Assembly (NCBI GenBank): GCA_016186625.1
Contig: JACPLG010000008.1
Location: 16,071-80,070 of the forward strand
DNA length: 64,000 bases
DNA from: Candidatus Levyibacteriota bacterium
GTDB lineage: Bacteria > Patescibacteriota > Microgenomatia > Levybacterales > UBA12049
Reading direction: 5' to 3'
Positions 8,631 through 35,914 of this stretch are shown here, piece by piece (positions within the stretch are counted from its first letter, which is position 1; each line of letters begins with the position of its first letter). The notes below the pieces were generated by a model. That model saw only the letters and a list, made by a program, of their open reading frames with translations. It was not told where the DNA came from and ran no database searches. Both the position numbers and the translations under genes were made by a program.

Positions 8631-8957
8631 AAAAAACCTCGCCCCAATCCCGATTTAATCGGGACAAGGGCGAGGATTCTCGCGGTACCACCTTGTTTTA
8701 CTAATTTGCCACTAAAAAATCCCCGTCGGGGGATTATTACTTGATAGCTAAAATAGCCTTATTCAAGTGCTCCGTTTCCGACACACTCTTTCTGCTGTAA
8801 CGGGCTTACCCGTAAACCTTAATTGTCTCCTTTAGGGTTTCAGCTCCGGAGGGTAATTCAAAGTTTTAAGTTCGGGGAGTCTTTCATCAGCCGCTCCCTT
8901 TCTTTTGTCACCTTAAAACTTCTACTGCGTCTCCATCAAAGCCTTTTGTTAAATTGT
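8631..8957 (-). promoter_or_regulatory. T-box riboswitch leader comprising a promoter, Stem I, a Stem III-like hairpin, and an antiterminator/terminator
   Basis: Minus-strand promoter TTGACA(8993-8988)-N17-TATTAT(8970-8965). Conserved T-box sequence AGGUGGUACCGCG (plus 8680-8693). Terminator CCUCGCCC...GGGCGAGG+U6 (8637-8679). Stem I has a K-turn (GGC-UUU-GA / GGAGC) and helix AAGUUUUAAG/CUUAAAACUU. The specifier loop has AGUA on the 5' side and UGAAUUAC on the 3' side. Confidence 0.65.
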
Positions 8958-15369: not shown

Positions 15370-15399
15370 ATTATAACTTGTTTAATCAAAAAATTAAAG

Positions 15400-15482
15400 T
15401 GGGCGAGGAGGGAGTCGAACCCACACAGCCTTGCGACTAGTAGTTTTTGAGACTACCGCGTATACCATTCCGCCACTCGCCC
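15400..15482 (-). tRNA. tRNA-Leu with anticodon CAA and a long variable arm
   Basis: The minus-strand sequence GGGCGAGUGGCGGAAUGG...GGUAGUCUCAAAAACUACU...GGGUUCGACUCCC...CUCGCCCA folds as a class II tRNA. The anticodon loop is CU-CAA-AA. Confidence 0.8.
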
Positions 15483-24089: not shown

Positions 24090-24091
24090 AA

Positions 24092-24133
24092 ATAGCAAAT
24101 AGCAAATAGCAAATAGCAAATAGCAAATAGACA
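24092..24133. repeat. Tandem heptamer (AAATAGC)x5-6. It is related to the GCTATTTACTATTT motifs at 58-98, 42447-42490 and 45753-45790.
   Basis: Direct inspection of the sequence. Confidence 0.8.
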
Positions 24134-25110
24134 AACGTTAGTAGGGAAGAGAGGTTAGTAGAAGGTATCAAAAGCATCAGAGGTATCAAAAGCATCAGAG
24201 GGAGAGCGATTCTAAAATTAATAATTTATTGCGGTTATTAAAAGAATTAAACAGGACCAAAGGTGGGGAAGAGGAGAGGGTGGAATTCTGATGATGCAGT
24301 TTGAGATACTGAATGTTGATATAGTTTGATATAGATAATGATTAAAATATTATAGGACTAAAAATTATAATTTTTAGTCTCAGATGGAGGATTTCACGAG
24401 ATTTTGCGACACTTTTCACAGCCAGGCTGGCTCGTTTGATCGGAAGCTAGAGGCGGAGCGGGTATGAGTAGAATTACATATCGGGAAATGAATGTGTATC
24501 TCTCTTATTTTCAGCCTCGAAACTAATCGTTTTCCCTGCAAAGTCAGGCTAAACGCCACTAAAAAAGAAAAAAATACGAATGTCTATTCTTACAATTCTT
24601 GAGGCTAAGAACTTACGTTTGGATTGACTAGACAAGCTAAACTCGACCTATGTGGAAAACTCGTTTCCTGGGGAAGAAAACAAGTGATAAACTTATCAAA
24701 AAGTATAATAAAATACTCAGGGAATTAAATATCAATGCCTTAAATCGAAGTACAGTGTCTTCCATTTATCTTCCCGAGCCGATCTACATAATTTTGGACA
24801 TGTGTCAGGCGCTGGGAGAGAGGAAGTGATAATGTCGTAGAATAATACTTTTACGACGTCACGGAGACTAGTCTTTCAGAGAAGACCTCTTTTAACCCCA
24901 TTTATTTTATCAGTATTTATCTGAAATTTTAAATTCGTTTAATTCCTTGTAGTATTCATCTCCCGATTTTCCTAATCGGTACAATATACCGCTATCCCCC
25001 GCTATAGGACATATGTTATTTATTTTTTCGAGGCTAAATGAAGCTAAATTTCAATTACTATCACACTCATCCAGCCTTGGAGAAGTTGTTTAGAGCCTAA
25101 GAATATAAGC

Positions 25111-25599
25111 TTATGAGTTATCTTCTTGTAAACTAGCAATTTCTCTGAGACGGTCAGGATCGACAATGCGATAAACAGTATGTTCTCCTCGCCATTCTTC
25201 CTCAGTTTGCTCTGCTTCTATAGCTCCTTCTCTAGCAAGCTGCGCAAGGGATTGGCTTAATGCGCGATAAGCAGGTGAATCTAGTCCTTTTCTCAACTGC
25301 CCCTTTGCCGAAAGAATTGTCCGTTTATCAAAAGGGTTTGCATATGGATCAAGTCCTGCGCGGTCTCTTAGGGGATTTCTAGTGATTGTAAGTATATCCT
25401 CTGCAATGCGCCTTTGAGTGTAGTCTTGAGGCTTAAAAGGTTTTATAAAAGAAACGTGATCTGCTACAGCTTCTATTAACCTGCGAACTAATGGAGTTTT
25501 AGTTGATTGACTACTTTCACTAGAACCTGGAGCTGCGTCTCTACTCGTATTTTTCCCAAGTCCTGGGGTTCTGAATTCCGAAACTCCTACTTCTGGCAT
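25111..25599 (-). CDS. Hypothetical protein; the first cassette of the island
   Basis: GC-richer ORF. Start context is TATAAATTAGTT-ATG (leaderless-type). Confidence 0.4.
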   Translation of the reverse strand: MPEVGVSEFRTPGLGKNTSRDAAPGSSESSQSTKTPLVRRLIEAVADHVSFIKPFKPQDYTQRRIAEDILTITRNPLRDRAGLDPYANPFDKRTILSAKGQLRKGLDSPAYRALSQSLAQLAREGAIEAEQTEEEWRGEHTVYRIVDPDRLREIASLQEDNS

Positions 25600-25634
25600 A
25601 ACTAATTTATATCACTTGCTTATATCCCATTCAA

Positions 25635-25874
25635 CTATGAGAAAGGTTTCATCCAGCCCCGAGTGACTCTTTGTGCTTTTCGTTTGCTCTGAAGATTTTG
25701 CTCTTCAATTATTTCAACGCCCGGAAGGCCTTTTTCTCCCATAATAAGTTTTGCCCTGACGCAAAGAAAATTCTTTGGCTCTTTCCGGATAATAACAAGA
25801 AAATATCCGCCTTCTGTTTTTCGTGCCCATTCCTTGTACTCTGGCGTGTACCACGTCACAAACCACTTCTTCAT
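25635..25874 (-). CDS. Hypothetical small protein; a cassette gene
   Basis: The start codon directly follows the conserved module CTGCTATAATTGCCTC-ATG. Confidence 0.4.
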   Translation of the reverse strand: MKKWFVTWYTPEYKEWARKTEGGYFLVIIRKEPKNFLCVRAKLIMGEKGLPGVEIIEEQNLQSKRKAQRVTRGWMKPFS

Positions 25875-25876
25875 GA

Positions 25877-25980
25877 GGCAATTATAGCAGAGTTGTGCTT
25901 AGGGTTTTTGGTGTCTGAATGTACCTTCCCACTTGGAATGTGGGAAGCAAGATTCTATCATTCATTGGGGGAATTATAGC
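25877..25980. repeat. Left copy of a roughly 105-bp direct repeat. It has module half-sites at both ends, a hairpin CTTCCCAC-N7-GTGGGAAG, and a minus-strand 27-codon ORF (MNDRILLPTFQVGRYIQTPKTLSTTLL).
   Basis: About 95% identical to 31853-31966. Confidence 0.85.
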
Positions 25981-25995
25981 AGTATAGCAGAAGAG

Positions 25996-26601
25996 TTATC
26001 TTTGAAGAATTTTAATAGCGATATCTCGCCCCAGAATCTTTGAAAGTTCCACCCAGACAATAACAATTTGCTCCATCAGTATAAATGATTCATTTCCTCC
26101 TAGATCATAGATTTTTCCAAAACCAATTTGTTTGGCAAGTTTGGTTGCTATCTTTTTCCCGCGAGTACTGTCTCCCCCAACAAACATATCTATTTTTTCA
26201 CCTTTGTAAATTGGGTTTTCCATATTTTTAAATCCGGTTGTATTAAAACACCTCACAATATCTTTTGTGTTTGTGTAAGCAAGAAGTGCCTCGGTAGTTG
26301 TACCGTAAGGTTTTGGTACTCCTCGAAATGCATTCATTACATCAATTATAACTTTGCCAGAAATATCTCCCATATGCTTGGCAATCTCCTTTGTTGCCCT
26401 AGGATCAGCAGCAGTTACAATTACGTCTGCGTTCTTTACTGCTTCAGAAATTGAATGAGCAGAGATATTTTTTGAAAGAAGCCTTTTTACTTTCGGCTTG
26501 TTTTCATCCCTAACGCCCAAGAAAACCCTATGCCCAACTTCTTCAAATCTCTTGGCAAGAGTTCCGCCCACATCACCAGCGCCAATAATTGCAATTTTCA
26601 T
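25996..26601 (-). CDS. NADP oxidoreductase, coenzyme F420-dependent family (Rossmann; ProC-like)
   Basis: MKIAIIGAGDVGGTLAKRF dinucleotide-binding motif. Length and layout fit F420_oxidored. Confidence 0.6.
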   Translation of the reverse strand: MKIAIIGAGDVGGTLAKRFEEVGHRVFLGVRDENKPKVKRLLSKNISAHSISEAVKNADVIVTAADPRATKEIAKHMGDISGKVIIDVMNAFRGVPKPYGTTTEALLAYTNTKDIVRCFNTTGFKNMENPIYKGEKIDMFVGGDSTRGKKIATKLAKQIGFGKIYDLGGNESFILMEQIVIVWVELSKILGRDIAIKILQR

Positions 26602-27092
26602 AAATTTTTATTGATATTTTTGTAAAAATCGTAGTGAGGGATTTCTTCTTCAGTCGGTGGACCAAATATTTTATGCCATTTTTTAAGATAAGCAAGGCTG
26701 ACTTTGAAAGGATAGTCTTTTTTGTTCCTCTTTTTAACTCTTTCCCAAAGAACATTAAGTGGTGCATCTAAGAAAAAAAGCTCTATCCTTAGACCAGCTT
26801 TTTTGAGTTGGACTTTGTGGTGGTCTCTATCTACTTTTGTCCAAAATCCATTTTCCAGAATTACATTTACGCCAAGATTGGCTAATATTATCGCTTGCTC
26901 GAACATGAGTTTTTCAAGTGGAGTCCTTATCCTTTTTGCCTCATCCATGTCAGTTGGGTCTTTTAGAAGGGGAATAATCCACTCATCTGGACAAAACCTA
27001 ACAGCTTTTCTTTCTTTTTCCAGTTTTTTGGCAAATGTAGTTTTTCCAGCCCCCGGAAGACCACAGACCATAATAACTGTTCCCTTTTTCAT
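26598..27092 (-). CDS. P-loop NTPase (AAA_33, zeta-toxin or kinase-like)
   Basis: VCGLPGAGKTTFAKKL Walker A. The ATG abuts the conserved module. Confidence 0.55.
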   Translation of the reverse strand: MKKGTVIMVCGLPGAGKTTFAKKLEKERKAVRFCPDEWIIPLLKDPTDMDEAKRIRTPLEKLMFEQAIILANLGVNVILENGFWTKVDRDHHKVQLKKAGLRIELFFLDAPLNVLWERVKKRNKKDYPFKVSLAYLKKWHKIFGPPTEEEIPHYDFYKNINKNL

Positions 27093-27116
27093 GGGGCAAT
27101 TATAGCAGAAGAATAA

Positions 27117-27371
27117 TTATTTTCTATAGATTTCTCGTCTGTGGCCTACCCTGAGAATTACAATGTTTTGTTTGTCTATATCAAAAACTATTCTGTAGTT
27201 TCCAACCCTGTAACGATAAGTGCCAATAGATGAGTTTATGAGTTTTTTAGAAAGTCCTTTCGGGTCCTTTGAAAGTTCTTCCAGCTTCTTTTTTATTCTT
27301 TTCTTTGCAATACTGTCAAGTTTTTGGATATCTTTGACTGCGGTTTTAGTATAGAGGAGCTTATAAGCCAT
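27117..27371 (-). CDS. Type II toxin, RelE/ParE family
   Basis: 84 aa with a C-terminal ...YRIVFDIDKQNIVILRVGHRREIY fold signature. Confidence 0.8.
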   Translation of the reverse strand: MAYKLLYTKTAVKDIQKLDSIAKKRIKKKLEELSKDPKGLSKKLINSSIGTYRYRVGNYRIVFDIDKQNIVILRVGHRREIYRK

Positions 27372-27619
27372 TAAACTTCGCCAAAAACTTTGTCGTGTGT
27401 TAAAAAGTCACCATTTTCATACTCATTTCTTGCCCTCCTTATACTTGCAAGATATTTTTTGTCTGCAAGAGCAAGTAAATCTTCAAAAAGATCAATATTT
27501 ACCAAAGCGGAGGTGATTTTACCTTTTCGTGCAACCAAAAGAAAATCTTTCTTTTTATTAACTTCTGAAAGAGTATCTGATAAATTATTTCTAAGGACTG
27601 TAGAGTTTACAATATTCAT
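27371..27619 (-). CDS. Type II antitoxin, Phd/YefM family
   Basis: 82 aa with a Phd/YefM N-domain (VNSTVLRNNLSDTLSEV...). It overlaps the toxin start. An upstream operator-like palindrome GTACAC-N5-GTGTAC lies within a second promoter. Confidence 0.8.
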   Translation of the reverse strand: MNIVNSTVLRNNLSDTLSEVNKKKDFLLVARKGKITSALVNIDLFEDLLALADKKYLASIRRARNEYENGDFLTHDKVFGEV

Positions 27620-27682
27620 GTTAAATTCAATTATACACTACAAGTGTACATTGTCAACGGGGCAATTATAGCAGAGTAAAAT

Positions 27683-28723
27683 TTAAAGAGAAAACTCTTG
27701 CTTGTAAAAATTAATTGTATTTGTTACAGCTTCTGACCAGCCGTTGGGTTGCAGATTATGATCTGCTCCTTGATATTTAAAATAAGCAGCATCTACTCCA
27801 TTTCCTTCAAGAGTCTCTACCAGTTCATCCGTCCACCAGTATGGTATTTCCTGATCCCCTGTCCCCTGGTGGACTTGAATTGGCGCTTTAATCCAGCGAT
27901 AATATTTCTCGGGAGAAAACAACTGGGTATCATAAAGCTCTTCAAAATCCGAAAGAGATTTTCGCATGGCCTTTCCCTGGTCATCTAACTCATCTGTGTA
28001 ATATAAAATGGAATAAGGAAAAGATTTGCTAACCGGTGCCCAAAGAACAGTCGGATATGTCACGCCACTAATTGCAAGTACAGATAATGCAATATGCCCT
28101 CCGTTACTATGTCCCCAAAGTCCAACATTCTCTAAATCTGCAGAAATAGTTCCTACGTAATCTGAATCAAGTCCTTTGTTTAAAGTGGGCAAAGATGATA
28201 AAAGAGTGAGCGCAGTTGTATATGTTTGAAATCTTCCCTCAAAAGGATTTGCGGATGGGCTGGCTGACTCTCCAAACCCCAAAAAATCAGACGCAAGCGT
28301 AATAAAGCCATTTTTTGAAATTTCCTCTGCTGATGGTTGAGTTCCGGCTCCGGGTTTATAAGTGTCCTGCGGGATAAAACCGCGAAACATGACAATCACA
28401 GGATACTCCCCTTCTATCTTAGGAATATTTATAAGGCCTGAAACTTTTTCCATTTTTTCACTTCCTGGAGTTTTGGGAGTTGAAAAATAGAAAATTTGAG
28501 AAAAAGAGTCTTCGTCCTCGCTGATAACGGACCCAAGTGTTATTTGATTTTGGGGGAATTTGGTATTTTTTAAATTCTCAAAAGTGTACGAAAGAAGTGG
28601 TTTTGGAATAATTTTTTCCCTTATGATATCTTTCTTAAAATAAAAGTTTTGGAAAATATAAAAAGATTCAGTGGCAATAATGGCAAACAAAACAATGAAT
28701 AACAATGCTAAAGCTTTTCTCAT
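27683..28723 (-). CDS. Secreted or membrane-anchored alpha/beta hydrolase (S9/dienelactone-hydrolase-like)
   Basis: GHSNGG nucleophile elbow with downstream Asp/His candidates. N-terminal signal/anchor. Confidence 0.65.
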   Translation of the reverse strand: MRKALALLFIVLFAIIATESFYIFQNFYFKKDIIREKIIPKPLLSYTFENLKNTKFPQNQITLGSVISEDEDSFSQIFYFSTPKTPGSEKMEKVSGLINIPKIEGEYPVIVMFRGFIPQDTYKPGAGTQPSAEEISKNGFITLASDFLGFGESASPSANPFEGRFQTYTTALTLLSSLPTLNKGLDSDYVGTISADLENVGLWGHSNGGHIALSVLAISGVTYPTVLWAPVSKSFPYSILYYTDELDDQGKAMRKSLSDFEELYDTQLFSPEKYYRWIKAPIQVHQGTGDQEIPYWWTDELVETLEGNGVDAAYFKYQGADHNLQPNGWSEAVTNTINFYKQEFSL

Positions 28724-29395
28724 TTAGGAAATTAAAGCGGTTATTGCTTCCATGAATTTAGTTGTGGAAAAGTCTGAATCGTGAAGGACTTTATAGCCAA
28801 GTGTAATACCGGCGATTTTTTCATATTTTTTTGCTCTTATCGCAAGAAGTTTGGGGTAACATCTTTCCAATGCTTCAAAATCTGTCTCATTTATTTTCTT
28901 ATTAAATGCGTTTCCCCAAATAACAGGTTTTGGATCTTGAAGATAAAGCCTATACATCTTTTTCTTAACAGAATCTGGTGTTTTAAAATAAATCACTTTC
29001 GTAAGACGGGTTAACTTCTTCAATGCACCCTCTCCTATATAAATTACGCTTCCTGTTGTATCTATCACAATATTTTTATTATTAGTAGATTTCTCAATAC
29101 CGGATAATATTTCTTCCATTACTTTTTCTTCAAGCTGTAAGTATTTTTTGCTTGTAGCGGGATACCTCCTGTCAAACGGTTGACCCATCCATTTAGATAC
29201 ATCTGCTATCCCGGAATACCCCAAATGTTTAAGCTCTCTTTCTAACTTTTCTTCAATTAAATCATCGCAACAATATCTTCTGAAGCCATAAGACCCAAGT
29301 TTTTTTGACCAATAAGTCTTGCCGCTACCAGACATGCCAACAAGCGAAATTTTCATCCTGTTAGATATCTTGTTTCTTTTGGTCATTCTTGTCAA
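28724..29395 (-). CDS. P-loop kinase (shikimate-kinase-like fold). The start may be the internal MKISLVG.
   Basis: LVGMSGSGKT Walker A, and an AroK-like N-terminal layout. Confidence 0.45.
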   Translation of the reverse strand: MTRMTKRNKISNRMKISLVGMSGSGKTYWSKKLGSYGFRRYCCDDLIEEKLERELKHLGYSGIADVSKWMGQPFDRRYPATSKKYLQLEEKVMEEILSGIEKSTNNKNIVIDTTGSVIYIGEGALKKLTRLTKVIYFKTPDSVKKKMYRLYLQDPKPVIWGNAFNKKINETDFEALERCYPKLLAIRAKKYEKIAGITLGYKVLHDSDFSTTKFMEAITALIS

Positions 29396-29496
29396 ACCCG
29401 TTAAAATCTAACGGGATTCATGGGGAAATTATAGCAGAAGGAAATTTTAATACCTAAATGTTGTATACTTATTTTGCGAAAGGAGGTGAAGTAAAA

Positions 29497-29745
29497 ATGG
29501 CTCTGTTTTTAGGTGTACATAAAATTTCTGCTGGAATGCAAGAATCAGAAATTGTGGAAGGATACAACAAATATAAGGAAAGTGCCAGAGCAAAAGGGTT
29601 AAATCCACTTTCTGCTGTATTTTCTTTAGAGAAAGGATTTGCCCATTGTCAAACCGAAGCACAAAGTGCTGATCAGGTACGGGAAGCACATACAGCAGTA
29701 GAAATTCCGCTGGAGGATGTAGTTGAAGTCAAACCTATTACTTAA
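29497..29745 (+). CDS. DUF4242-family protein
   Basis: The pattern MALFLGVHK...GL..L...FS.EKG.AHCQTEA.SADQVREAH matches DUF4242. An AGGAGGTG RBS lies 8 nt upstream. Confidence 0.6.
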   Translation: MALFLGVHKISAGMQESEIVEGYNKYKESARAKGLNPLSAVFSLEKGFAHCQTEAQSADQVREAHTAVEIPLEDVVEVKPIT

Positions 29746-29878
29746 TGGCAATATTTGTGCAGACACGAACTTTTGCCTCGGAATTTCCGGCTTCCTGTTC
29801 TAAAATCAGTATACCGCCAATAGATTTTGGGCAATTATAGTACCCCACTTCGCACTAGGCTACGAGAGACGAGGGGAA

Positions 29879-30130
29879 TTATTTGTAAATTGTTGAACGA
29901 TGGCCTGCGGTAAGTATTAAAATTATTTTATCTTTTTTATTTACTTTATAAACTATTCTATAAACCCCAATCTTGTATGAATATTTTCCAGTGAGTTCTC
30001 GCGTTAGGGGTTTTCCGATATCAGGATTTTCTTTTATATCCTCAAATATATTTGAGAGTGCAAGACGGTGGCGATAAGATATATTTTTAAGCTCTTTTTT
30101 TGCCCTTGTGGTTAGTTTTAGCCGCAACAT
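29879..30130 (-). CDS. Type II toxin, RelE/ParE family
   Basis: 83 aa with the C-terminal YRIVYKVNKKDKIILILTAGHR. Confidence 0.75.
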   Translation of the reverse strand: MLRLKLTTRAKKELKNISYRHRLALSNIFEDIKENPDIGKPLTRELTGKYSYKIGVYRIVYKVNKKDKIILILTAGHRSTIYK

Positions 30131-30398
30131 GCAAACCTAATTCTTTTTTTACATCTTCCCAATCATGAACTTTTCCCAGAGCTTCATCTTTTTCTCCTTG
30201 CCGAATTGCCTTCATTAAAGAGGGGTCTGATAAGATTTCCGTGGTTTCTTTCCATGATTCAAATTCAGCATGAGACATAATTACCGCAGCCGGAACCCCG
30301 TTTACGGTTATAATATACTCATCAAGCTTATTTTTTGCGTTATCAACGATTTGAGTTAATTCTTCTCTTGCTTTGGTGACAGGTAAAGTTTGTGTCAT
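30087..30398 (-). CDS. Type II antitoxin, Phd/YefM family
   Basis: Phd N-domain (VTKAREELTQIVDNA...YIITVNGVPAAVIMS). Confidence 0.75.
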   Translation of the reverse strand: MTQTLPVTKAREELTQIVDNAKNKLDEYIITVNGVPAAVIMSHAEFESWKETTEILSDPSLMKAIRQGEKDEALGKVHDWEDVKKELGLHVAAKTNHKGKKRA

Positions 30399-30469
30399 TA
30401 AACCATCTTACAGAATTATGTACAATTTGTCAATGGGGCAATTATAGCAAATAAGGATGGTTTACAATT

Positions 30470-31231
30470 TTAAGTATCAAGCATATCCCATTCATCTCCT
30501 AAAACCCAACGTAAAGTTGATAATTTGCCATTGATCATTCCCCATTCAAAATCTGTGTAAGGTCCCAGATTCTTTTTCCCATATTTCTTTTCTACTTTTT
30601 TTGCTGCCGACAAAGCACCTTCGACAATATCCTTAGGAGTGTTTTTACCAAGATGACCACCAGTTTTCATTAGCTGATGGCGGTCGTACCAAATTTTGTC
30701 AAAGTATTCCTCTTCTGCTTCTAGAATGATTTTAATACTCCGAATAGGACCCGAAATCAAGTCATATTTTCTAAGCAGCGAAATTTTCTTTCTAGATAAC
30801 TTTTCAAGCATCGGTCGTTCCCAGACTTTAATTTTAAAAGGTGGATTATTTGTTTTCTTGTAAGTTTCGATATAATCCTTGGCCGGATTAGATAGAAAAT
30901 TTGAAACTATAAAAATCACGCCATCTGGTCTTTCTGCTTCTGCCCATGTTAGGAGATTTCGAAGTGCTTCAGGCGGTACGCCCTTAGTATGATGCTTGCA
31001 GTCTGTGAACCATTTTTCAAAATATTTACTTTCGTCAATATCAATTCTTTCTTCTTGGAAAACGATGTCCCTGCCTCTGTCAGAAGGACTAGTATTGAGA
31101 CCAGTTCCCTTTCGCCAATCTACATTGAAATATCCTAATTTCTGAAGTAGATCAAAACAAAACTCCTCAAATTCTATTGAAGTTAGGTGTTTAAAAGATG
31201 TAGTATTCATAGCTTGGTAGGTTGGGTGCAA
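30470..31231 (-). CDS. Restriction-endonuclease-like (Mrr_cat-type) domain protein
   Basis: The N-terminal FEEFCFDLLQKLGY...DRGRDIVF resembles the Mrr catalytic domain. The C-terminus is unknown. Confidence 0.4.
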   Translation of the reverse strand: MHPTYQAMNTTSFKHLTSIEFEEFCFDLLQKLGYFNVDWRKGTGLNTSPSDRGRDIVFQEERIDIDESKYFEKWFTDCKHHTKGVPPEALRNLLTWAEAERPDGVIFIVSNFLSNPAKDYIETYKKTNNPPFKIKVWERPMLEKLSRKKISLLRKYDLISGPIRSIKIILEAEEEYFDKIWYDRHQLMKTGGHLGKNTPKDIVEGALSAAKKVEKKYGKKNLGPYTDFEWGMINGKLSTLRWVLGDEWDMLDT

Positions 31232-31378
31232 TAATATTACAAATTGAGCCTATTTGCAAATTTTGTGGTGCAATTATAGCAGAGTTAATGGATAATATTT
31301 TGTTTGCCTGAATTACAATACTACGCTATAGCGTAGTATTGTACTGCTATCTAATTATTCTATATTACCGCAGGGCAA

Positions 31379-31849
31379 TTATAGCAGAAGGAGAAAATAA
31401 CAGATTCCCAAAAAGTAAACGACTAAAAAAAGAATTATTAACAATAAATGAATTTCATGTGTGGTAAAAAATCGTGCAGGTCTAGGCATTCTGTATGGAC
31501 GATCGATCAGTACTTCTGCTCCTTCCGAATACTTTTTACCCTTTCCATTTAGCAAGTTCCAACTTGAAGGTTCAGATTCTCTTACCTGCGCCATTCGAAA
31601 TTGAAAATAGTTTGTTCTTTTTTGGTAAGAAAGCAACCAAATAAGACTAACAATAAAACCAATTATACAAAGTATTAGCAAAAACGTATTCGAACCTAAA
31701 TTTTTGTCCCAAACCACAGCAATAACTGATCCTAAAATTGTGTTAGCAATTAAAAATATATTCGAAGTTTGCCAGAAAAGACTATCTTCATTTTGTTGTA
31801 TTTTTAAAGCAATTTCATATTGCTTTATTTGCATTTCTTCTTTTGTCAT
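31379..31849 (-). CDS. Hypothetical membrane protein (3 TM)
   Basis: The ATG follows the module CTGCTATAATTACCCA. The stop codon lies inside the next module (CTTCTGCTATAA). Confidence 0.4.
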   Translation of the reverse strand: MTKEEMQIKQYEIALKIQQNEDSLFWQTSNIFLIANTILGSVIAVVWDKNLGSNTFLLILCIIGFIVSLIWLLSYQKRTNYFQFRMAQVRESEPSSWNLLNGKGKKYSEGAEVLIDRPYRMPRPARFFTTHEIHLLLIILFLVVYFLGICYFLLLL

Positions 31850-31852
31850 TGG

Positions 31853-31966
31853 GTAATTATAGCAGAGTTGTGCTTAGGGTTTTTGATGTCAGAATGTACC
31901 TTCCCACTTGGAATGTGGGAAGCAAGATTCTATCATTCATTGGGGGCAATTATAGCCCTTCGGCTC
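31853..31966. repeat. Right copy of the roughly 105-bp direct repeat (27-codon ORF variant MNDRILLPTFQVGRYILTSKTLSTTLL)
   Basis: See the left copy at 25877-25980. Confidence 0.85.
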
Positions 31967-31994
31967 TGCTCAGGGCAAGCAGAAATTATTTTCT

Positions 31995-33962
31995 TTAATT
32001 AAAAACTACGGTTGATTCGTTGGAGCAAGTAGTAGTTCCTTCTTCACAAACTTTATAAATATAGGTGCCGCTTCCTCTCTGGTTAATATTATCAGTGTAG
32101 AATCCATCATTTGCTGTAGTTGCCACTAAAACGCTGTCTCGATACACATAAACATTAGTTGTATTTGCACCAGACCAGTTAAGATCAGCCTTTTGCAGCC
32201 CTTTGACTTTATATCCTGTAGTTGTTAAAGAAATATCAGGTGCTTCAACAACAGTTATTACTACATCATCCGAGGCTGATGCTCCGTCGTTGTCTGTAAC
32301 CGTTAAAGTGACGGTATGTGTACCTAAGGCGAAATCAACGGTAAGAGTAGCGCCGCTTCCCAGCCATATCCCACCCTCGTACCAATCATAAGAAACAATA
32401 CTTCCGTCAGGATCATAAGAGCCGGAACCATCCAGAGTGACGGCTTCTGTGCCATTACCGTCATTATCAATAACTGTCTGATCTGCGCCGGCGTCGGCAA
32501 CCGGCGAATCATTAAAATTGTCTACCACTACGTTCACCTGATCGCTTTTTGTTTGAGATGCAGTATCTGTGGCAACAGCTTTTATCACGTGGCTTCCTTC
32601 TGCTGCAGTTGTTGTATCCCAGTTTGCTTCATACGGGATTTGGGTATCAGAGCTAAGCAAAACACCGTCAATATAAAAATCAACGCTAACTACCCCGTTA
32701 TCATCTGAGGCATCAGCAGTAATAAGAATTGTTCCCGAAACCGTAGCTCCTTCTGACGGACTGGTAATGGAAACAGCAGGGAGTTGATCAACCGGCCCGG
32801 GAACACTTGCTGCCGCTGCCGCGTCCACCCTGCCATAACCATAATGCTTGTCCCGGCCCGAACTGCCAAGATCTACGGCCGTACTATTCATTCTACCCCG
32901 AACATCGTCAAAACCGGCCTTTATAACTAAGGCCGCGGTACCGGCAACATGCGGACTAGCCATGGATGTTCCGCTATAGTTTCCGTAACCTCCTCCGGGA
33001 AGCGTTGACTTGATACTTACCCCGGGACCTGAAATTTCAACCGCAGGACCGGTACTTGACCAGCTTGCCCGCTTATCATCGCTGTTGGTTGCCGCAACTG
33101 CCACCAATGAATCCCAACGGGCAGGATAGATGACATTATCTCCGTTTCCGGGTGGGTTGCCGGAGTTGCCTGCCGCCGCAATATGGAGTATTCCCAAAGC
33201 CGCAGAATTGTCAAAAGCCGCCTTAACCGTAATTCCCGGGTCTCCGGAGCTCCCATAGCTGTTATTGGTGATCCCAACACCGTCATTTACCGCTTTTTCA
33301 AGCGCCGCTATAACATCGCTGTAGCTTCCGCTACCGTTTGACCCCAATACTTTATAAGCATAAACCTTAGCCTCAGGCGCTACCCCAACAACGCCTACGT
33401 CATTGTCTTCTGCTGCAATTGTTCCTGAGACATGCGTTCCATGGCCATTATCATCCATTGGATCAGCGTCATCATTATAAAAATCATAACCGCCGGCATA
33501 ATTTGCATCCAAGTCCGGATGGGTATAATCAATTCCTGAATCAATTACGCCAACCTTAACTCCCGTTCCTTTATTACCGCCGTCATGCACTGTTCCTGAG
33601 CCAATCTTTTTTACCCCCCAAGTACCGTCAAGTTCGGCATCTACGGCGTAAACTTTAATATCCGGTTCTATTACCTTAACGTTGGGGTTATTAAGAAGTG
33701 CTTCTTGGGCATTTGTCGGAATGTTTGCCGCAATTGCGGGGACTAAATTATATGTGTATTTAATTTCTCCGCCGTGTGCTTTTACCAGTGCCTGTTCATT
33801 TTTTCCAGGAGTTTTTGTAAATCCAATAATTACATCCTCCCGTGAAGATGCCTGAGGCGCCCTGGGCGTTTGTGAATTAACTTGTGCCGCAAATGGCGTA
33901 AAAACTAAACCAACAGCCAATATTGCAGCAGTTAAAATTTTGCTAAGTCTTTTTAACCACAT
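31995..33962 (-). CDS. Secreted S8 (subtilisin-like) serine peptidase with C-terminal Ig/PKD-like beta domains
   Basis: Signal peptide. Catalytic triad motifs DSGI, HGTHVSGTIAA and GTSMASPHVAG. Confidence 0.85.
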   Translation of the reverse strand: MWLKRLSKILTAAILAVGLVFTPFAAQVNSQTPRAPQASSREDVIIGFTKTPGKNEQALVKAHGGEIKYTYNLVPAIAANIPTNAQEALLNNPNVKVIEPDIKVYAVDAELDGTWGVKKIGSGTVHDGGNKGTGVKVGVIDSGIDYTHPDLDANYAGGYDFYNDDADPMDDNGHGTHVSGTIAAEDNDVGVVGVAPEAKVYAYKVLGSNGSGSYSDVIAALEKAVNDGVGITNNSYGSSGDPGITVKAAFDNSAALGILHIAAAGNSGNPPGNGDNVIYPARWDSLVAVAATNSDDKRASWSSTGPAVEISGPGVSIKSTLPGGGYGNYSGTSMASPHVAGTAALVIKAGFDDVRGRMNSTAVDLGSSGRDKHYGYGRVDAAAAASVPGPVDQLPAVSITSPSEGATVSGTILITADASDDNGVVSVDFYIDGVLLSSDTQIPYEANWDTTTAAEGSHVIKAVATDTASQTKSDQVNVVVDNFNDSPVADAGADQTVIDNDGNGTEAVTLDGSGSYDPDGSIVSYDWYEGGIWLGSGATLTVDFALGTHTVTLTVTDNDGASASDDVVITVVEAPDISLTTTGYKVKGLQKADLNWSGANTTNVYVYRDSVLVATTANDGFYTDNINQRGSGTYIYKVCEEGTTTCSNESTVVFN

Positions 33963-34289
33963 AGTAAAACTTTCAAAATTGTTCTGTTCAAATGCTATTT
34001 TACCACATAATGCAAGTCCTGTGAAATTTAATTGGAATCTGAGACAGTCTTAAGAACAAAGTTTAAAGGGGAAATTCTTCCAAAAATTTATAATTTGCGC
34101 CGCTTCTTGAGAGGTGTGACTCCATCAAAACAAAAGAATCAACTCTGTCTTGCCATAAAACTTCCTCGTCTAATTTTTTAACTTCGAACTTAGAAAATGA
34201 ACCGGGATTGAATCGAATCAAAGTCATATGTATAAGAAATTTTTTGTTTTTGTCGGCATCTCAAAGTAGACAACAGGATTCATCCCAAT

Positions 34290-34745
34290 TCAAATTTTTT
34301 CTCCATGTCTTCGGAAGCGATTTATTGCCTCTGAAATTTCCTTTGATTCATTTGTTAAATAGTCAATATTAGCAGTATCATCGCTAATGAAATCGTCAAA
34401 TCTCCCGCTTCTTGAGGTATAATACGGTTGAATCATGGGGTGATCTGCTTTAAATCCAATTCTTCCTTCCAGATCGTTAGGATCTATCATGTCAAAATAA
34501 TAAACGGAATATGGATGTTTTTTCCCATCTCTCCCGATTTCAAGAAAAACTTCCCTTCCAAACCTATAGCCGTTCCAATAAATAATTAAATTATGGGAGA
34601 TTTCTCCACTTGGGCCAATGTATATTGAATCAATAAATGAAGATATAACATCCGAGGCAGAAGTTCCGTGAGGATTGACAGGTTGCTCAATTGCTCCTCT
34701 AAATTTTTGCAAAAACCTTCGTCCTGCCTCAATCATAGTCAGCAA
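34290..34745 (-). CDS. Hypothetical protein
   Basis: ORF only. Confidence 0.35.
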   Translation of the reverse strand: MLTMIEAGRRFLQKFRGAIEQPVNPHGTSASDVISSFIDSIYIGPSGEISHNLIIYWNGYRFGREVFLEIGRDGKKHPYSVYYFDMIDPNDLEGRIGFKADHPMIQPYYTSRSGRFDDFISDDTANIDYLTNESKEISEAINRFRRHGEKI

Positions 34746-34981
34746 TTATATTCTCTTTGACTTGACAACACAAATTTCCCGGCCTAGAATAAAACCATAA
34801 AGAAGAATTATCGCAGAATTTGCGCTTATTACTGCGACGCGAGCATCGCAGAATGATCGATTCGCCTATGTATAAATCGGAACGCTCTGGTTCGAAAAAA
34901 TTTCAAATGTGGCACTCGCCTACTCTTTCTGCTAATGGACAATTTTTTGAAGATTTAGCCATTAAATTTAACTTATAGTTT

Positions 34982-35914
34982 ATGGAAACAAAACTGCCCG
35001 ACCTTATCGATGATTTTTTGGAATACCTTGAGATCGAGAAAAACTGCAGCAAGCTTACAATTAGAGACTACAGGCACTACTTGGAAGTGTTTAACGACTG
35101 GTATATTAGAACAATTCCTGACAAATCACTGGAAAAATTAGACCTCTCTGATATAAGACGCTACAGAGTTTTTCTTTCCAACAAGATTGATGAGAAAGGA
35201 GTAGGTCTAAAAAGAGTTACCCAAAATTATTACATAATAGCACTTCGTTCATTCCTCCGATTTCTTATAAAAAATGATTACAAAACCCTTGAACCGTCAA
35301 AAATCGATTTGCCAAAAACAGAAAGTAGGTCTTTGAAGTTTTTGGAAAGAGAGCATGTGGAGCGTTTGGTCACTGCACCGGATACCACAAAGGAGGAAGG
35401 GATTAGGGACAGGGCAATTATTGAATTATTATTTTCAACAGGTCTTCGCGTATCAGAATTAACCAAGTTAAACAGGGACCAAATTAATCTTGAGAGACGT
35501 GAGTTTGGTGTAATTGGAAAAGGAGGACGAGGACGAATTGTGTTCGTTTCTGATAGAGCTTCAGAATGGATAAAAAATTACCTCAATAAGAGGAAGGATA
35601 CTTTTAAGCCAATGTTTATAAGATATTCCGGAAAAGTTATTGAGGAAGATAATGGAGAGAAAATGAGACTCACTCCAAGGTCAATTGAGCGAATAGTTAA
35701 AAAATATGTCAGGGCAACTCGCCTGCCGGTGGATGCTACAGTTCACACTCTAAGACATAGTTTTGCAACAGATCTCTTGACAAACGGCGCAGACCTTCGC
35801 TCAGTCCAGGAAATGCTTGGCCACAAAAATATTGCTACAACTCAGATCTATACACATATAACAGATAAGCAACTTAGGGAGGTACACAAATCATTCCACA
35901 GCGGAAATAAATAA
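34982..35914 (+). CDS. Tyrosine site-specific recombinase (XerC/XerD-like integrase)
   Basis: The C-terminal catalytic box HTLRHSFATDLLTNGADLRSVQEMLGHKNIATTQIYTH, and an R...K...H.R..H.Y arrangement. Confidence 0.85.
   Translation: METKLPDLIDDFLEYLEIEKNCSKLTIRDYRHYLEVFNDWYIRTIPDKSLEKLDLSDIRRYRVFLSNKIDEKGVGLKRVTQNYYIIALRSFLRFLIKNDYKTLEPSKIDLPKTESRSLKFLEREHVERLVTAPDTTKEEGIRDRAIIELLFSTGLRVSELTKLNRDQINLERREFGVIGKGGRGRIVFVSDRASEWIKNYLNKRKDTFKPMFIRYSGKVIEEDNGEKMRLTPRSIERIVKKYVRATRLPVDATVHTLRHSFATDLLTNGADLRSVQEMLGHKNIATTQIYTHITDKQLREVHKSFHSGNK

Follow-up and report, generated by a model that had tools for sequence, protein, structure and literature searches.

A duplicated hairpin unit bounded by a promoter-like motif in a variable accessory-gene island of a Levybacteria genome

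The locus described here lies in a 64,000-nt stretch of contig JACPLG010000008.1 of Candidatus Levyibacteriota (hereafter, the window, whose own numbering is used throughout), in which a set of accessory genes occupies an otherwise syntenic neighborhood. In the syntenic relatives (L024 and L027-L033), the gene order runs from a TPR gene through YebC, DUF5656, ~1 kb of conserved gene-free DNA, and a variable set of genes to a XerC/D-like recombinase gene and SIMPL. Homology of the backbone to these relatives ends at about position 25090 and restarts at about 34865, and the array analyzed here therefore lies in a hypervariable interval of 9.8 kb (25100-34865, unstranded), extending from the conserved gene-free block to the recombinase gene. 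The same interval spans only 1-3 kb in the relatives and contains wholly different genes (10805-12750 in L024, 10805-13830 in L027, and 7798-10797 in L030). The recombinase gene (34982-35914, plus strand), recognized by profile search and synteny, encodes a XerC/XerD-type tyrosine recombinase and keeps its position in all relatives. The protein scored 254 bits against XerC and 253 bits against XerD, whereas its match to the integron-integrase model TIGR02249 (cut-off 265) was split into two pieces and reached 113 bits. The interval is a gene-content hotspot beside what is probably the housekeeping Xer gene, and no dif-like site was identified. Placement of the replication terminus from GC skew was considered and rejected, since the skew merely tracks the gene strand in such a short window.

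The minus strand encodes all genes local to the feature under study and nearly all of those located from 25.1 to 34.8 kb. The resulting one-orientation cassette array adjoins the divergent recombinase gene, with an S8 protease gene and a 151-aa gene, which lack the motif described below, located between them; no exact match to the S8 protease was on record. The cargo of the island includes two ParE/Phd pairs, a Mrr-like nuclease (the PADLOC candidate PDC-M58A), P-loop kinase-like proteins, a hydrolase, an oxidoreductase, an 8xMP protein, and several unknowns.

Between the DUF5656 gene and the island, the ~1-kb gene-free stretch (24090-25100) is kept in four relatives with a mean identity of 67%. 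It displays long invariant blocks and similarity in all reading frames, and holds no ORF over 60 aa. RNAalifold predicted long-range helices with compensatory changes in 15 of 131 pairs and no net covariation bonus, and searches of the block returned no Rfam, tRNA, or tmRNA match. The stretch may represent an undescribed large structured RNA. Tandem repeats are located just past the DUF5656 stop codon (24090-24198; AAATAGC in ~6 copies and AGGTATCAAAAGCATCAG twice), and the variable island starts right where the block ends (…CACTCATCCAGCCTTGGAG, about 25090). Elsewhere in the window, a T-box leader (8663-8948, minus strand) scored 98.8 bits, which exceeds the gathering threshold and documents this riboswitch class in a Levybacteria genome, and a tRNA-Leu(CAA) was located at 15399-15482 (minus strand).

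Within the island, a repeat finder run on the 64-kb window aligned 25871-25971 with 31846-31946 at 95% identity. Extension with blastn enlarged the alignment to 25871-25980/82 versus 31846-31956/57, with 94.6% identity over 111 columns, a single 1-nt indel, and an E value of about 2e-45, and revealed no third copy in the window. The direct repeat of about 95% identity proposed in the initial annotation is thus real, although the end that had been assigned to its second copy (31966) overshoots the homology by about 9 nt. Read on the minus strand, copy A (25871-25982) and copy B (31846-31957) each comprise a promoter-like motif, an ~82-nt interior containing a hairpin, and a second motif immediately adjoining the start ATG of the next gene. 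For copy A, this next gene encodes a 79-aa protein of unknown function (25635-25874, minus strand; from the ORF list), and for copy B, it encodes an 8xMP-family membrane protein (31379-31849, minus strand; from the ORF list and a family search), both with leaderless-type starts. The copies sit at the two ends of a run of 11 same-orientation motif copies (25875-31957) and hence bracket the array as had been suggested, apart from the motif-preceded 79-aa gene that lies beyond copy A. The plus-strand ORFs that span the copies (25671-25979 and 31820-32002) run antisense to genes with promoter-consistent starts, in agreement with their earlier dismissal as probable artefacts, and a protein-database search found no protein on record resembling the read-through of copy B in the 31820-32002 frame.

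The sequence at the unit ends had been described as a module half-site. As a sequence element, it was readily recovered: AATTATAGCAG is exact at three of the four unit ends (25880, 25972, and 31855), and the fourth (31948) reads AATTATAGCCC. On the minus strand, it corresponds to yTCTGCTATAATTGCCCC, which comprises an extended -10 hexamer (TGnTATAAT), a T, and a GC-rich, C-rich discriminator. A motif scan placed TGCTATAATTCCCCC upstream (25967-25981) and TGCTATAATTGCCTC downstream (25875-25889) in copy A, and GGCTATAATTGCCCC upstream (31943-31957), just past a hairpin that trails the S8 protease gene, and TGCTATAATTACCCA downstream (31850-31864) in copy B, all on the minus strand. In the blastn alignment, the identity between the copies starts at GCTATAATT in the upstream motif and stops at TATAATT in the downstream motif, so that both edges of the repeat fall in the motif core. 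The discriminator 3′ of the downstream motif differs between the copies (GCCTC versus ACCCA) and is therefore part of the gene that follows. At the upstream edge of copy A, a partial motif duplication, CTGCTATA at 25983-25990, produces the arrangement CTGCTATA|CTGCTATAATT on the minus strand, and may be a recombination or slippage scar.

All 11 motif copies share one orientation and are confined to 25875-31957, with no further copy at three or fewer mismatches elsewhere in the window. Nine of them contain TGCTATAAT, and the remaining two read GGCTATAAT and TACTATAAT. Between the two repeat copies, the motif at 27093-27107 is followed 6 nt on by the ATG of an AAA_33/zeta-like kinase gene, and the motifs at 27659-27673 and 30435-30449 are followed by the first and second Phd/ParE operons, which carry their own promoters (TTGACA-N16-TATAAT and TTGACA-N17-TAAGAT, respectively). 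A degenerate copy, TACTATAATTGCCCA, with a GCGAAGTGGGG flank before it, is located after the second ParE gene (29828-29842); this copy and the one at 30435-30449 were also examined by junction comparison. The copy at 29422-29436 is followed by a 6-codon ORF and a hairpin and then by a P-loop gene; all of these copies are on the minus strand. This last arrangement (29396-29436), with its MNPVRF reading frame and 7-bp hairpin CCCGTTA…TAACGGG, has a short leader-like layout. A -35/-10 pair formed by the TTGCCC of the motif and a downstream TAGAAT was rejected, as the spacing is only 10-13 nt.

In about half of the motif copies, the start codon of a real gene falls exactly 6-7 nt after the -10 hexamer, which is the geometry of a leaderless mRNA. 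Specifically, an ATG lies exactly 6 nt 3′ of TATAAT at 25874 (the 79-aa gene), 27092 (the AAA_33/zeta-like kinase gene), and 31849 (the 8xMP gene), and the 6-7-nt spacing to an ATG or GTG also occurs in other contigs (L015 1876 and 2513, L034 10541, L036 9346, L038 620, and L039 3504). A Shine-Dalgarno sequence is absent at these leaderless-type starts. Beyond the island, a count that took in 214 long ORFs from nine loci of Levybacteria and related Patescibacteria revealed 23 -10-like hexamers whose end lies exactly 6 nt upstream of a candidate start, compared with a background of about 6 for neighboring offsets. Housekeeping genes in the window display an extended -10 in the same layout (3023, minus; 3080, plus; 15369, minus; 15650, plus), and TGCTATAATT-N5/6-ATG promoters are present even in the syntenic close relatives in which the GC-tailed motif is missing. 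Together, the start-codon geometry and the lineage-wide hexamer signal indicate that the half-site core is best read as the lineage's predicted promoter for leaderless mRNAs, and we therefore re-read the half-site as a minus-strand extended -10 promoter plus discriminator. A literature search on leaderless promoters or cassette arrays in Patescibacteria found only a general promoter-architecture paper. The layout of the motif agrees with the general framework of extended -10, -10, discriminator, and YRY start (PMC12641261).

The hairpin reported in the initial annotation was also found in both copies, with the identical sequence CTTCCCAC-TTGGAAT-GTGGGAAG (copy A, 25925-25947; copy B, 31900-31922; both minus strand), an 8-bp stem, and a 7-nt loop. 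Folding revealed that this hairpin is the core of the predicted structure and that the interior holds little else that is stable. Compared with shuffled sequences, the interior alone gave z scores of -2.0 and -3.1 for the two copies, and the whole unit gave -1.0 and -3.4. No U-tract is present 3′ of the hairpin, which is therefore not a canonical terminator, and the intrinsic-terminator candidate was rejected. Rfam searches of both copies, of the third unit described below, and of the neighboring conserved block returned no match at the gathering threshold, and a permissive run (E<=1) gave chance-level matches only.

Comparable units were identified at two further places. Within the window, a third gene-less tandem-motif unit (winC; 31267-31386, minus strand), recognized by motif scan and folding, measures 105 nt from motif to motif, has an unrelated interior, and lies upstream of the Mrr-like gene. 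It holds a perfect 30-bp palindrome (15+15), TACAATACTACGCTA|TAGCGTAGTATTGTA, at 31314-31343, which could serve a dimeric regulator as its operator or form a hairpin of high stability in RNA. The second place is the contig CAZFNO010000035.1 (L015), which is syntenic with the window (YebC, DUF5656, and a TPR-like gene) and whose island contains five motif copies and a homologous Phd/ParE cassette. Here, a gene-less tandem-motif unit of 127 nt is duplicated at 99% identity (1033-1159 and 1751-1877), with the same motif bounds, a 10-bp hairpin, and an interior that is unrelated to that of the window except for a short 5′ (T)ATAGAAT. The latter segment lies 12-20 nt after the motif and is common to all three unit types. 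For the strong central hairpins of these two further unit types, z scores of -3.7 and -2.0 were obtained. The layout that recurs in the arrays thus consists of a motif, an unstructured 5′ part, a hairpin, an A-rich tail, and a motif, and in both arrays examined (window and L015), one unit type occurs twice. The L015 contig is labeled 'uncultured Gammaproteobacteria', yet its gene order and a 58-85% protein-level similarity (YebC, DUF5656, the TPR-like gene, and Phd/ParE) match the Levybacteria window, and it is probably mis-binned or mislabeled.

A wider search for the unit returned little else. A scan of the GTDB species representatives with the tandem-motif pattern yielded 16 loci, namely L015, which was the one genuine match, and 15 singletons that arose by chance in unrelated taxa. 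No match was obtained in JGI metagenomes with either the hairpin or the tandem-motif pattern, in the scanned viral contigs, or in phage genomes and plasmids by blastn in distant mode, and a proxy search for DNA copies, in which the protein database was queried with the plus-strand read-through of the unit, was likewise negative. Hence, copies of the repeat beyond the two in the window, which the initial annotation had proposed to seek by blastn, were not recovered from any of these collections. The exact proteins flanking each copy were found only in short Logan contigs from one study that end inside the repeat, as expected for a sequence that is present twice in one genome.

The boundaries of the cassettes themselves provided a further view of the motif. 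The Phd/ParE cassette was found in no fewer than five genomic settings (the window, L015, L034/35, L036-38, and L039). Its 5′ homology starts at the upstream motif in 4 of the 6 junctions compared (L039 and L041 being the exceptions), and its 3′ homology stops at the downstream motif in all 5 junctions compared, with unrelated flanks beyond. Since homology breaks at the motifs, both the cassettes and the gene-less units behave as motif-delimited modules. In more distant Levybacteria that carry the Phd/ParE cassette (L040-L059), the motif is absent and the operon keeps its own TTGACA-N17-TAATAT promoter, which limits the motif to a sub-lineage. An imperfect hairpin, CCCCTCGTAGCC-loop-GGCGAAGTGGGG, recurs at cassette 3′ ends and abuts the next TGCTATAATT motif (window 29843-29885; L015 1714-1750; L036 9280-9330; L038 545-604; L039 1530-1567). 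Combined with the motif, this hairpin gives an inverted repeat, GGGG…CCCC, that surrounds TATAAT, and it could be a terminator-like or site-like element.

The interpretation that we favor, with a confidence somewhat above even, is that the repeat is a non-coding promoter-to-promoter module with a hairpin that was copied within the variable accessory-gene island of this Levybacteria (CPR) genome. At its upstream end lies the shared predicted promoter, composed of the extended -10 TGCTATAAT, a T, and a C-rich discriminator, with a purine at the expected start site. There follow an interior of ~80 nt whose only stable predicted structure is the 8-bp hairpin, and then the second promoter copy, which sets the A of the downstream ATG at the predicted transcription start and would give rise to a leaderless mRNA. 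We infer that recombination in the 10-bp promoter core common to all cassettes produced the second copy of the module within the island, an origin that would explain why the repeat starts and stops inside this core; homologous or microhomology-driven exchange would be the simplest mechanism. By acquiring the module, the downstream gene would gain two tandem promoters. Transcription from the proximal one would yield the leaderless mRNA, and transcription from the distal one would yield a transcript with a ~92-nt hairpin-containing leader, whose 5′-proximal AUG would open an incidental 27-codon frame. In addition, recombination between the two direct copies of 111 nt could remove the 5.9 kb that separates them.

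Several parts of this proposed module have known counterparts. Leaderless extended -10 promoters have been mapped in Actinobacteria, Deinococcus, and others, and as in the island, TGnTATAAT lies 6-7 nt upstream of a start codon that lacks a Shine-Dalgarno sequence, so that transcription and translation would begin at the same A. The island differs from these in that a 15-17-nt version with a fixed C-rich discriminator is found near-identical before unrelated cassettes. The two promoters upstream of one gene likewise resemble tandem leaderless promoters, but here, the stretch between the promoters is itself duplicated as a unit.

Against the favored module, two observations stand out: the GC-rich tail TGCCCC of the motif is kept although it is superfluous for a plain promoter, and the motif precedes Phd/ParE operons that have their own complete TTGACA-N17-TAAGAT promoter. 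Both hint at an additional role of the motif as a binding or crossover site. The duplication of a gene-less unit in both arrays also runs counter to accident and suggests selection or a dedicated process. Moreover, the hairpin is kept in all three unit types despite their unrelated sequence and may have a specific structural function as RNA or DNA.

If that function resided in the RNA, the unit could be a functional structured RNA, either a small RNA that the upstream promoter would produce or a leader acting in cis, with its hairpin regulating the gene that follows. We consider this unlikely. The hairpin is identical in both copies and, as the z scores above indicate, folds better than shuffled sequences, as do the strong central hairpins of the two analogous unit types. 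That structure matters is argued most strongly by the presence of a hairpin in each of three unrelated interiors; the common 5′ (T)ATAGAAT and the retention of each unit type twice per array in two genomes add to this. However, the unit matches no Rfam family even at E<=1, the missing U-tract leaves no obvious terminator or attenuator, and the genes downstream of the units are unrelated (the 79-aa unknown, 8xMP, Mrr-like, Phd/ParE, and a 76-aa unknown). The 8-bp stem is untouched by the two substitutions between the copies, one of which disrupts an extended pairing; with n=2 near-identical copies, the unchanged stem is too small a sample to show covariation. Leader-peptide attenuators offer a partial likeness, as they too combine a short ORF that overlaps a hairpin upstream of a gene, but the unit displays no alternative terminator/antiterminator and no U-tract, its peptide is not conserved, and a second promoter is positioned between the ORF and the gene.

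The initial annotation had also considered the repeat as the recombination substrate of the island, and this reading is plausible, given that a 111-nt direct repeat flanks 5.9 kb and has its edges in a shared motif. A more specific version, in which the motif is the crossover site of a Xer-type site-specific recombinase (integron- or dif-module-like) and the units are recombinogenic spacers or attL/attR-type scars around a 5.9-kb insert, appears to us rather unlikely. On its side, the island adjoins a conserved XerC/D-type gene divergent from the cassettes, the interval is hypervariable among close relatives, cassette and unit homology breaks at the motif, and, as a promoter, the motif is redundant in front of the toxin-antitoxin operons. 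Toxin-antitoxin cassettes are, furthermore, typical cargo of Xer- and integron-like platforms. The partial duplication CTGCTATA|CTGCTATAATT at the edge of copy A is likewise compatible with a crossover site. With respect to arm symmetry, the GTGGGGTGC-TATAAT-TGCCCCAT junctions are partly palindromic, forming imperfect inverted repeats around an AT-rich center, but most motif copies are of the commoner yTTCTGC type and lack dyad symmetry. In addition, the start-codon spacing and the lineage-wide leaderless signal already account for the motif as a promoter. The bit scores given above assign the recombinase to XerC/D rather than to the integron integrases, and since it also occurs in relatives beside variable regions that lack the repeated motif, it is probably a housekeeping Xer. 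Conversely, motif-flanked cassettes are found in contigs without a nearby recombinase of this type, and some intergenic gaps in the array, at only 24 nt, leave no room for attC-like sites.

Like the ~120-bp attC repeats of the Vibrio cholerae chromosomal integron, the units are hairpin repeats of ~100 nt in a one-orientation array of accessory and toxin-antitoxin genes. A divergent tyrosine recombinase is adjacent, and the repeats resemble one another within a genome but differ from one genome to the next, as in integron arrays. We rejected an attC identity because inverted R''/R' core sites (RYYYAAC ... GTTRRRY) are absent and the unit ends are direct repeats. Unlike in integrons, most junctions hold only the 17-mer, the cassettes have their own promoters, and the recombinase is Xer-like rather than IntI-like. 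Xer modules, such as the Acinetobacter plasmid pdif modules and IMEX at dif, share with the island a nearby Xer recombinase, short sites that bound small toxin-antitoxin modules, and the occurrence of the same module in different contexts. Their sites, however, are built of 28 bp as XerC arm, spacer, and XerD arm, the two arms being inverted, 11 bp each, around a center of 6-8 bp, with pdif sites alternating in direction, whereas the motif is unidirectional in all copies, mostly asymmetric, and positioned as a promoter. There is a small chance that the motif doubles as the exchange site of an undescribed CPR cassette platform at a Xer hotspot, in which accessory and toxin-antitoxin cassettes would each be motif-first and be moved in and out, and the genome-specific hairpin units would be attC-like recombinogenic elements.

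The reading of the unit as a small-protein gene, in which a leaderless 27-aa peptide would be produced from the upstream promoter, fared worse, and we regard it as very unlikely. A 27-codon frame is indeed open in both copies (copy A, 25882-25965, MNDRILLPTFQVGRYIQTPKTLSTTLL; copy B, 31857-31940, YILTSKTLSTTLL, containing YILTSK; both minus strand, from translation), and its ATG lies 7-8 nt past the -10, near the geometry of the real leaderless genes of the island. Contrary to the claim of a conserved micro-ORF with only conservative peptide changes, the two substitutions inside the ORF are both non-synonymous (Q to L and P to S), and the 1-nt indel moves the ATG relative to the -10. The stop codon in copy A is merely the TAA within the downstream TATAAT, and about 6.8% of shuffled interiors yield an ORF of at least 27 codons starting within 12 nt of the motif. 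No gene-strand ORF of at least 10 codons is present in winC or in the two L015 units, and the 27-aa peptides have no Pfam match. The ORFs are thus probably incidental, although transcription that the upstream promoter starts at their AUG might lead to incidental translation. Overall, the repeat, its hairpin, the presence of an open frame, and the position of the copies as initially annotated were borne out by our analysis, whereas the conserved micro-ORF was not.

Finally, a small mobile repeat (MITE-like or Correia/BOX-like) that targets promoters, with the flanking motifs as a target-site duplication, is highly improbable: the motif-interior-motif layout resembles an insertion between duplicated targets, small intergenic repeat elements are of similar size (about 80-95 nt) with an internal hairpin, and the Logan contigs end within the unit in the way that assemblies stop at repeats, but the interior lacks terminal inverted repeats, only 2 copies exist in 64 kb with none among the 16 GTDB loci, JGI metagenomes, viral contigs, phages, and plasmids, and two copies in one genome suffice to explain the contig breaks. 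The Neisseria Correia, pneumococcal BOX/RUP, and REP/ERIC elements resemble the unit in being intergenic, ~100 nt long, and hairpin-forming, and in their ability to supply or modify the transcription of neighbors; the unit differs from them in its lack of terminal inverted repeats, its two copies seen in one island, and its bounds, which are a promoter core.

Taken by itself, the repeat is an ordinary feature, namely duplicated non-coding DNA bounded by predicted promoters, and a variant of tandem leaderless promoters, intergenic repeats, and island-flanking direct repeats. The surrounding array system deserves more attention, as it shows the sequence-level organization of a variable accessory island in a reduced CPR genome. 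The cassettes of this island are compact, each opens with a near-identical putative leaderless promoter, and homology between genomes breaks there. If the shared promoter core permits cassette swapping, by homologous recombination or by a recombinase, it would offer a simple route to gene-content variation in very small genomes, and would also provide a usable promoter consensus for a lineage without genetics.
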